The position numbers and the translations under genes are program-made. From IMG/VR virus record IMGVR_UViG_2713896791_000007: a stretch of DNA of 14,943 nt, one strand, 5' to 3'. The notes below the pieces were generated by a model that saw only the letters and a program-made list of their open reading frames with translations, had not been told where the DNA came from and made no database searches. Of this stretch, positions 1,314 through 2,550 are shown piece by piece. The DNA is from a virus (lineage: Duplodnaviria; Heunggongvirae; Uroviricota; Caudoviricetes). Numbering within the stretch: position 1 is the first letter of the stretch; each line of letters starts with the position of its first letter.

Positions 1314-2550
1314 GCCGCCATCAGCGTGTTGTAATCCGCCTGCAGGATTTTCCCGTCTTTCAGTGCCTTGTTCAGTTCTTCCTGACGGGCGGTATATTTC
1401 TCCAGCGGCGTCTGCAGCCGTTCGTAAGCCTTCTGCGCCTCTTCGGTATATTTCAGCCGTGACGCTTCGGTATCGCTCTGCTGCTGCGCATTTTTGTCCT
1501 GTTGACTCTGCTGTTCAGCCTTCTTTCTGGCGGCTTCAAGCGCAAGACGGGCCTTTTCACGATCATCCCAGTAACGCGCCCGCGCTTCATCGTTAACAAA
1601 ATAATCATCCTTGCGCAGATTCCAGATGTCGTCTGCTTTCTTAAACGCAGCCTCTGCCTTAATCAGCATCTCCTGCGCGGTATCAGGACGACCGATATCC
1701 AGCACCGCATCCCACATGGATTTGAATGCCCGCGCAGTCCTGTCTGCCCAGGTCTCCAGCGTGCCCATGTTCTCTTTCAGGCGGCGGGTCTGGTCATCAA
1801 ACCCTTTCGTTGCGGCCTCGTTCGCCGCCTGCAATGCCCCGGCTTCATCGCCGGAACGCTGCAACTGAGCAACATACGCAATCTGCTCCGCCGTCACGTT
1901 ATGGAACTGACGCGCCATCGCTGTCAGCCCCGACGTCGGGTCTGTGGTCAGCTTCCCGAAGGCTTCAGCGACCTTGTCCACCTCCACGCCGGATGCAGAG
2001 GAGAAACGCGCCACACTCTGGCTGATGGACGCAATCTGAGCCTCACCGCTTACCCCCGCCTTAACCAGTGCGCTGAGTGACTCGCTGGTCTGGTTAAACG
2101 TCAGCCCTGCCGCCTGCCCGGCTCTGGACAGGACCAGCATACGATCTGCCGTCAGTCCCGCCTGATTGCCGGAAAGGACCAGCGTTTTGTTGAAATCGGA
2201 CAGGGTTGAGTTGCCCTGATACCAGGCATACGCCAGCGCACCGGTCGCCACCGCCAGCGAGGTGGCCCCCCTGTTGCAGCAGGATCAGCCACGGACTTTG
2301 CCCGCCTGCAAGCTGCGTGGCCACGTCGGTGAACTGTGCAGGCAGCATACGCATGGCGGCTTTATACTGCCCGACGGAAATCCCCGCTTTCTGTGCAGCC
2401 AGCGCCTGTCGGCTCAGCGACTGTTCAACGACTGCCGCTGTTTTTTTCGCATCACTTTCCGTACCGGAAAAATGACGCCTGACTCTGGCCATCTGCTCGT
2501 CAAATCTGGCCGCATCCAGACTCAAATCAACGACCAGATCGCCTACCGGT

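Follow-up and report, generated by a model that had tools for sequence, protein, structure and literature searches.

In phage lambda, the tape measure protein gpH, which is the product of gene H (NP_040595), is essential for tail formation and sets tail length. The gene lies after G and T, and a functional gene of the lambda type is read as one unbroken frame of about 853 codons. In addition to its role in the tail, gpH goes into the inner membrane together with ManYZ when the DNA is injected (PMC13190303). The paper on SNIPE that reports this makes use of ECOR-derived PhiR phages and does not mention the deletion described below (PMC13190303). Likewise, a search of the literature on ECO103_P02 and PhiR49 returned nothing.

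The DNA considered here (the window, which is the whole stretch of 14,943 nt that was analysed) comes from an E. coli draft genome with a lambda-like prophage, whose late operon is on the minus strand, with the genes Nu1, A, W, B, C, D, E, FI, FII, Z, U, V, G, T, and H in this order. Beyond Nu1, the prophage continues with the cos region and with its ylcI/ybcW/ybcV side. Around H, the window is ~99.5% identical to phage lambda and, as in lambda, H is placed after G and T, being downstream of G/GT and overlapping the end of T. Moreover, positions 1314-13115 (11.8 kb, the stretch that includes the junction described below) align without gaps and at 99.94% identity with a prophage of the E. coli O103:H2 strain 12009, which is located next to tRNA-Arg/intD, at the DLP12/argU site. 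The slippery heptamer of the programmed -1 frameshift of lambda G/GT, GGGAAAG, is present at 2985-2991 of the minus strand, in the overlap between G and T; with this heptamer conserved, the two chaperone genes that precede the broken H seem to be intact. The features of this part of the window are the following.

2551..3389, minus strand: the tail-assembly chaperone genes G (2967..3389) and T (2551..2985), both intact; the gene order identifies H.
2094..2558, minus strand: the truncated H frame, made of 98 native residues, 56 out-of-frame residues, and TGA, as given by translation and by the TMP_2 match.
2266..2271, minus strand: the deletion junction, a G6 run in which H nt 288 is fused to H nt 369, as given by alignments with lambda, PhiR49_1, and OkiPb01675.
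1314..2265, minus strand: the continuation of H (H nt 369-1325) in another phase, as far as the first N gap.

Translation of the window from the H start at 2558 of the minus strand yields a frame (MAEP...LILLQQGG) of 98 native residues, which stays native as far as the G6 run at 2266-2271. This agrees with a preliminary description of this DNA, in which the start frame had been followed from 2558 to about 2265, ending in LILLQQGG. The stop that the same description had placed at the frame break is actually found 56 codons later, at the TGA at 2094-2096; past Gly98, the frame runs through 56 out-of-frame residues and the product is therefore a protein of 154 aa (ORF 2094..2558). The sequence of H picks up in the other phase at 2265/2263, as G-ATSLAVATGALAYAWYQ... 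(…ATSLAVATG), and thus practically where a restart had been proposed, near 2263. The continuation at 1314..2265 lacks any credible start, and the listing of open reading frames opens it at a GTG at 2251. In effect, the H of the window lacks the single unbroken frame of about 853 codons that is seen in a functional lambda-type tape measure gene.

At the break, alignments with lambda (NC_001416), PhiR49_1, and the intact OkiPb01675 allele all show one gap, of exactly 80 nt (H nt 289-368). Because 80 nt is not a multiple of three, the native frame is lost after Gly98. In the alignments with lambda NC_001416 and OkiPb01675, there are no further indels between the H start and the first N gap. A deletion of about 80 nt that frameshifts H had been proposed earlier, together with a comparison with lambda H as the means of checking it; the comparison was made, and the lambda reference retains the 80 nt that the window lacks. 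The residues lost with this segment are GGQVKDSFGGMIPMFRGLAGAITLPMV or equivalent, to which the roughly 27 missing codons that had been proposed come close. By contrast, the GCCA direct repeats that had been named as the borders of the deletion are rejected, since both borders are G runs: the intact gene reads CAACA-G7-CAGG...74 nt...GGT-G5-CCACC, while the window reads CAACA-G6-CCACC. Thus, the intact allele has short direct repeats flanking the lost segment, one copy of which is left at the junction, and the microhomology at the junction is GGGGG, with 5 nt that are ambiguous.

The deletion is real, and it frameshifts the tape measure gene H. To follow it in other genomes, a junction probe of 47 nt was used, which is centred on the junction so that neither half can seed a match alone. 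This probe matches 24 of 5,426 complete E. coli genomes at 100% identity. The carriers include 12009, several genomes with an O103:H2 label, the O45:H2 genome FWSEC0003, one genome with an O121 label, and isolates from CDC, USDA, and Japan; those with a serotype label are mostly O103:H2 and O45:H2. In the four annotated records that were examined (12009, 2011C-4251, FWSEC0003, and WL1277), PGAP labels H as 'frameshifted' in every case. The protein product leads to a similar picture, as the out-of-frame tail of the 154-aa protein arises from no other junction and makes this protein diagnostic of it. In a protein collection drawn from NCBI, ENA, and Logan, the 154-aa product is recorded from 277 contigs, and one of its records is titled 'tail protein [Escherichia coli O45:H2 str. 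2009C-4780]'. The lesion is, consequently, reproducible across independent assemblies. For the source strain itself, the presence of the junction rests on the agreement of its sequence with that of the related finished genomes.

There is also an intact, near-identical allele at the orthologous locus. OkiPb01675 carries the same prophage at the same site and with the same flanking genes, with an H of 2,562 nt (WP_000840244.1). When compared with the H of 12009, 2011C-4251, FWSEC0003, and WL1277, this allele shows 0 mismatches other than the deletion of 80 nt and a second deletion, of 1 nt.

This second lesion is a feature of the finished genomes. In the finished carriers, the H region is 2,481 nt long, 81 nt below that of lambda, the difference being the sum of the two deletions. 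The smaller of them changes a G4 run to G3 at H nt ~2093 (17747-17749 of the NC_013353.1 segment of 12009), and a junction probe for it matches exactly the same 24 genomes; thus, the lesions of 80 nt and 1 nt are completely linked. The window cannot show the lesion at H nt ~2093 because its 3′ part of H (1-911) belongs to another prophage and is joined over N gaps. Since the two lesions total -81 nt, the last segment of H is back in the frame of the first, with the 1,725 nt in the middle read in another phase. As a candidate, frame-restoring compensation by the second deletion was discarded on account of these 1,725 nt between the lesions, across which the H start frame is full of stops. The deletion of 1 nt is, instead, a second hit on an already dead gene, and H is broken twice in all finished carriers.

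According to Pfam, intact H has TMP_2 (PF06791) at residues 54-256 and Tape_meas_lam_C (PF09718) at residues 627-701, while hydrophobicity mapping gives two hydrophobic segments with centres at 113-131 and 692-709. With the 80 nt, half of the first of these segments is lost from within the conserved TMP_2 domain. What is left in the 154-aa product is the first quarter of TMP_2 (it matches profile positions 2-48 of 208 only), and together with this half-segment, the product lacks all that follows in gpH; no single polypeptide holds both TMP_2 and Tape_meas_lam_C complete. The second lesion falls at codon 698, inside the second hydrophobic segment, which is rich in Gly. From this analysis, no functional tape measure should be made, and the prophage should be unable to build tails by itself, a predicted defect that is strengthened by the second linked frameshift in the complete genomes.

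The way in which the 80 nt were lost is suggested by the layout of the intact gene. Here, three G runs are found in 86 nt (G7 at 288, G5 at 335, and G5 at 369), and the runs of H nt 288-373 encode the Gly-rich first hydrophobic segment. A slipped-strand or microhomology-mediated mechanism can be proposed because the endpoints of the deletion fall in the first and third of these runs; an event of this kind between the G7 at nt 288 and the G5 at nt 369 would have removed the 80 nt. The lesion arose in the lambda-like prophage at the DLP12/argU site and has been passed on vertically. H has every tested characteristic of a pseudogene made by microhomology-mediated deletion, and a real, vertically inherited pseudogene lesion of H, produced by deletion between G runs in the argU-site prophage, is given a probability of 0.93.

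A lesion that is real may, nevertheless, not amount to a prophage that is dead in practice. Carrier genomes have 5-7 places that match H, of which at least one is an intact H (in 12009, at 2.15 Mb). This 12009 paralog encodes 853 aa and is ~92.5% identical, and resident lambdoid paralogs of this kind might complement the broken gene in trans or repair it by recombination, in which case particles would still form. H paralogs share stretches that are long enough to mislead assemblers. In addition, little else is decayed in the 12009 prophage stretches that were examined, where the only pseudogenes are H, one hypothetical gene, and one partial HTH gene. The rescue of defective prophages in multi-lysogenic EHEC is said to have been described for O157 Sakai. 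However, both lesions are fixed and unrepaired in 24 of 24 genomes. Furthermore, no phage record or viral contig has the junction: its exact sequence was absent from GTDB representative genomes, IMG/VR viral contigs, JGI metagenome contigs, and GenBank phages, which fits a variant that persists as a chromosomal resident and does not propagate as a phage. For these reasons, rescue by resident paralogs is considered unlikely.

Another possibility comes from the behavior of the G runs in other genomes. The loss of one G from the G7 run is observed in 11 other complete genomes, of which nine are O157:H7, one is O15:H18 ST69, and one is O99:H6. In the phage record PhiR49_1/PhiR49_1_star, the same run (H nt 288-294) reads G6 and H is annotated as two CDSs; if this phage is viable, the record probably has a homopolymer error. 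A further case is 2013C-4187 (NZ_CP027546.1), where one G is lost from the G5 run at H nt ~335, inside the 80-nt segment, and H is labelled 'frameshifted'. Some of these single-base losses may be homopolymer sequencing errors; the presence of one in nine O157:H7 genomes points to inheritance in at least one case. With three G runs in 86 nt, the stretch is particularly prone to frameshifts or sequencing errors. It could be imagined that the cluster (H nt 288-373) is a hypermutable 'contingency' stretch, through which the tape measure is repeatedly switched off in resident prophages by -1 slips and run-to-run deletions, with slippage or recombination between paralogs as ways in which it might be turned back on. 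If this were true, multi-lysogenic EHEC would keep otherwise intact morphogenesis modules that are silenced yet recoverable; such a role is, however, regarded as quite improbable.

The state of the window itself has to be weighed before its gap is taken at face value, as the preliminary description had left room for an error of assembly. Downstream of the H continuation, the 3′ part of the gene is a patchwork, and its pieces are the following.

1264..1313: a run of 50 N, a scaffold gap that stands in place of 202 nt of H (nt 1326-1527).
962..1263, minus strand: a fragment of 302 nt that corresponds to H nt 1528-1829 and is 100% identical to lambda and 12009.
912..961: a run of 50 N, a scaffold gap across which the H coordinates step back, from 1829 to 1411.
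1..911, minus strand: H nt 1411-2321 of another allele, foreign to the deleted gene.

Positions 1-911 match at 100% identity an intact H that belongs to another prophage (12009, 2.154 Mb), have 29 mismatches to the argU-site prophage, and overlap in H coordinates with 962-1263. The window is, thus, a draft scaffold that stitches together H pieces of different prophages. An internal tandem duplication of H, as the repeats at 540-900 and 1020-1260 might have been read, was discarded, as 1-911 is the H of the other prophage and N gaps lie between the pieces; the apparent repeat is a product of assembly rather than a sign of a longer tape measure.

The window has three N runs in all (912-961, 1264-1313, and 13116-13146), and these are not masks of equal length to the missing sequence, given that, by comparison with 12009, 202 nt are replaced by 50 N and 212 nt by 31 N. 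The 31 N at 13116-13146, which replace 4965-5176 of the NC_013353.1 segment examined, lie just past the cos site, which is expected ~190 nt upstream of Nu1/nohD, and they are probably a further repeat-induced assembly break of the kind common to lambdoid prophages.

Within 1314-13115, there are 7 mismatches with 12009. All of them are in H, where they sit in two tight clusters (1922, 1913, 1910, and 1891; 1528, 1514, and 1506), and at 5 of the 7 the window has the base of the H paralog of the 2.15-Mb prophage. Judged from the sequence, such clustered paralog-type bases suggest a consensus that mixes paralogous reads or, otherwise, a small gene-conversion tract.

With a gapped scaffold, a chimeric 3′ part of H, paralog-like base calls, and G homopolymers that are prone to error, it could be argued that the 80-nt gap is itself an artefact of draft assembly or sequencing, such as the collapse of a G run or a mis-join between paralogous H genes. 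However, the patchiness of the scaffold leaves the junction untouched, and the 11.8 kb around it are gapless against 12009. Moreover, the junction and the length of its G6 run are identical in 24 finished chromosomes from many submitters, and its product is found on 277 contigs. A mix-up with the one resident paralog that was examined (12009, 2.15 Mb) cannot create the junction either, because the G run of this paralog is interrupted (CAGGGCGGTCAGG) and its 80 nt are retained. Together, these observations dispose of assembly error as an explanation, which is left with a negligible probability.

Finally, a functional change of frame, by recoding or transcriptional slippage at G6 or through a tape measure made of two polypeptides, with a working protein 27 residues shorter, might be invoked because a G6 run lies exactly at the junction, the sum of -81 nt puts both ends of H in one frame, and lambda uses programmed frameshifting one gene upstream (GGGAAAG, 2985-2991), but it is hardly conceivable, as the 1,725 nt between the lesions are in phase with neither end and would require two separate low-probability shifts, the downstream ORF (GTG 2251) lacks a good start or Shine-Dalgarno sequence ahead of it, half of a hydrophobic segment in the conserved TMP_2 is deleted, the carriers examined have zero substitutions relative to the intact allele and thus no sign of selection on a two-frame layout, and the junction is found in only 24 of the ~3,500 complete genomes that match the H region, so that the two-frame layout is not conserved in diverged relatives as it would be in a programmed frameshift.

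The reading as an inherited pseudogene has some practical implications. In annotation, the H of this locus is to be treated as one pseudogene and not as two genes, and in inventories of inducible phages of O103:H2/O45:H2 Shiga-toxin E. coli, the prophage is to be scored as tail-defective. The two linked lesions are, in addition, handy markers of the O103:H2/O45:H2 genome group. More generally, draft scaffolds of multi-lysogenic E. coli fuse the H genes of different prophages, and calls on gene integrity need finished genomes.

Some observations on public records can be added. PGAP annotates an identical H sequence in two ways, either as one 'frameshifted' pseudogene or as two partial pseudogenes, the latter named 'tail length tape measure family protein' and 'tail tape measure protein'; among the matches listed, which of the two forms is used correlates with the assembly's strand orientation. 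A different oddity is MW057783.1, 'Campylobacter phage CJLB-4' (48,361 bp, host Campylobacter jejuni), which is 99.5% identical to lambda H/T over 100% of the query and in lambda-like coordinates; the record seems to be either lambda DNA with a different name or contamination.

How the H of the window stands in relation to known systems can be described in terms of its closest relatives. Outside the deletion, it has ~99% nucleotide identity with lambda H (10 mismatches in 1,245 nt), with which it shares the first 98 residues and the sequence past the junction. Unlike lambda H, it is without nt 289-368 and, hence, has no continuous frame of 853 codons, and its finished relatives also lack 1 nt at ~2093. 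The 12009 pseudogene ECO103_RS31230 and the equivalent genes of 23 other complete genomes have an identical junction, and these are the same lesion in the same prophage as in the window. Where the window departs from the H of 12009 is in 7 clustered mismatches and in the rest of its H, which consists of N gaps and a contig of another prophage. The H of OkiPb01675 has its site and neighbouring genes as in the 12009-type prophages and is identical at every aligned base, but it keeps both the 80 nt and the G4 run; it is the pre-deletion state. The same G-run cluster is affected in PhiR49_1, in the O157:H7, O15:H18, and O99:H6 genomes, and in 2013C-4187, where H is likewise split and, in those examined, appears as a frameshifted pseudogene or as two CDSs, although these cases differ from the window in that 1 nt is lost inside one run, while in the window the deletion goes from run to run. 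Seen in this company, the H lesion is already known as a public annotation and is a case of ordinary prophage decay, with no new biology.
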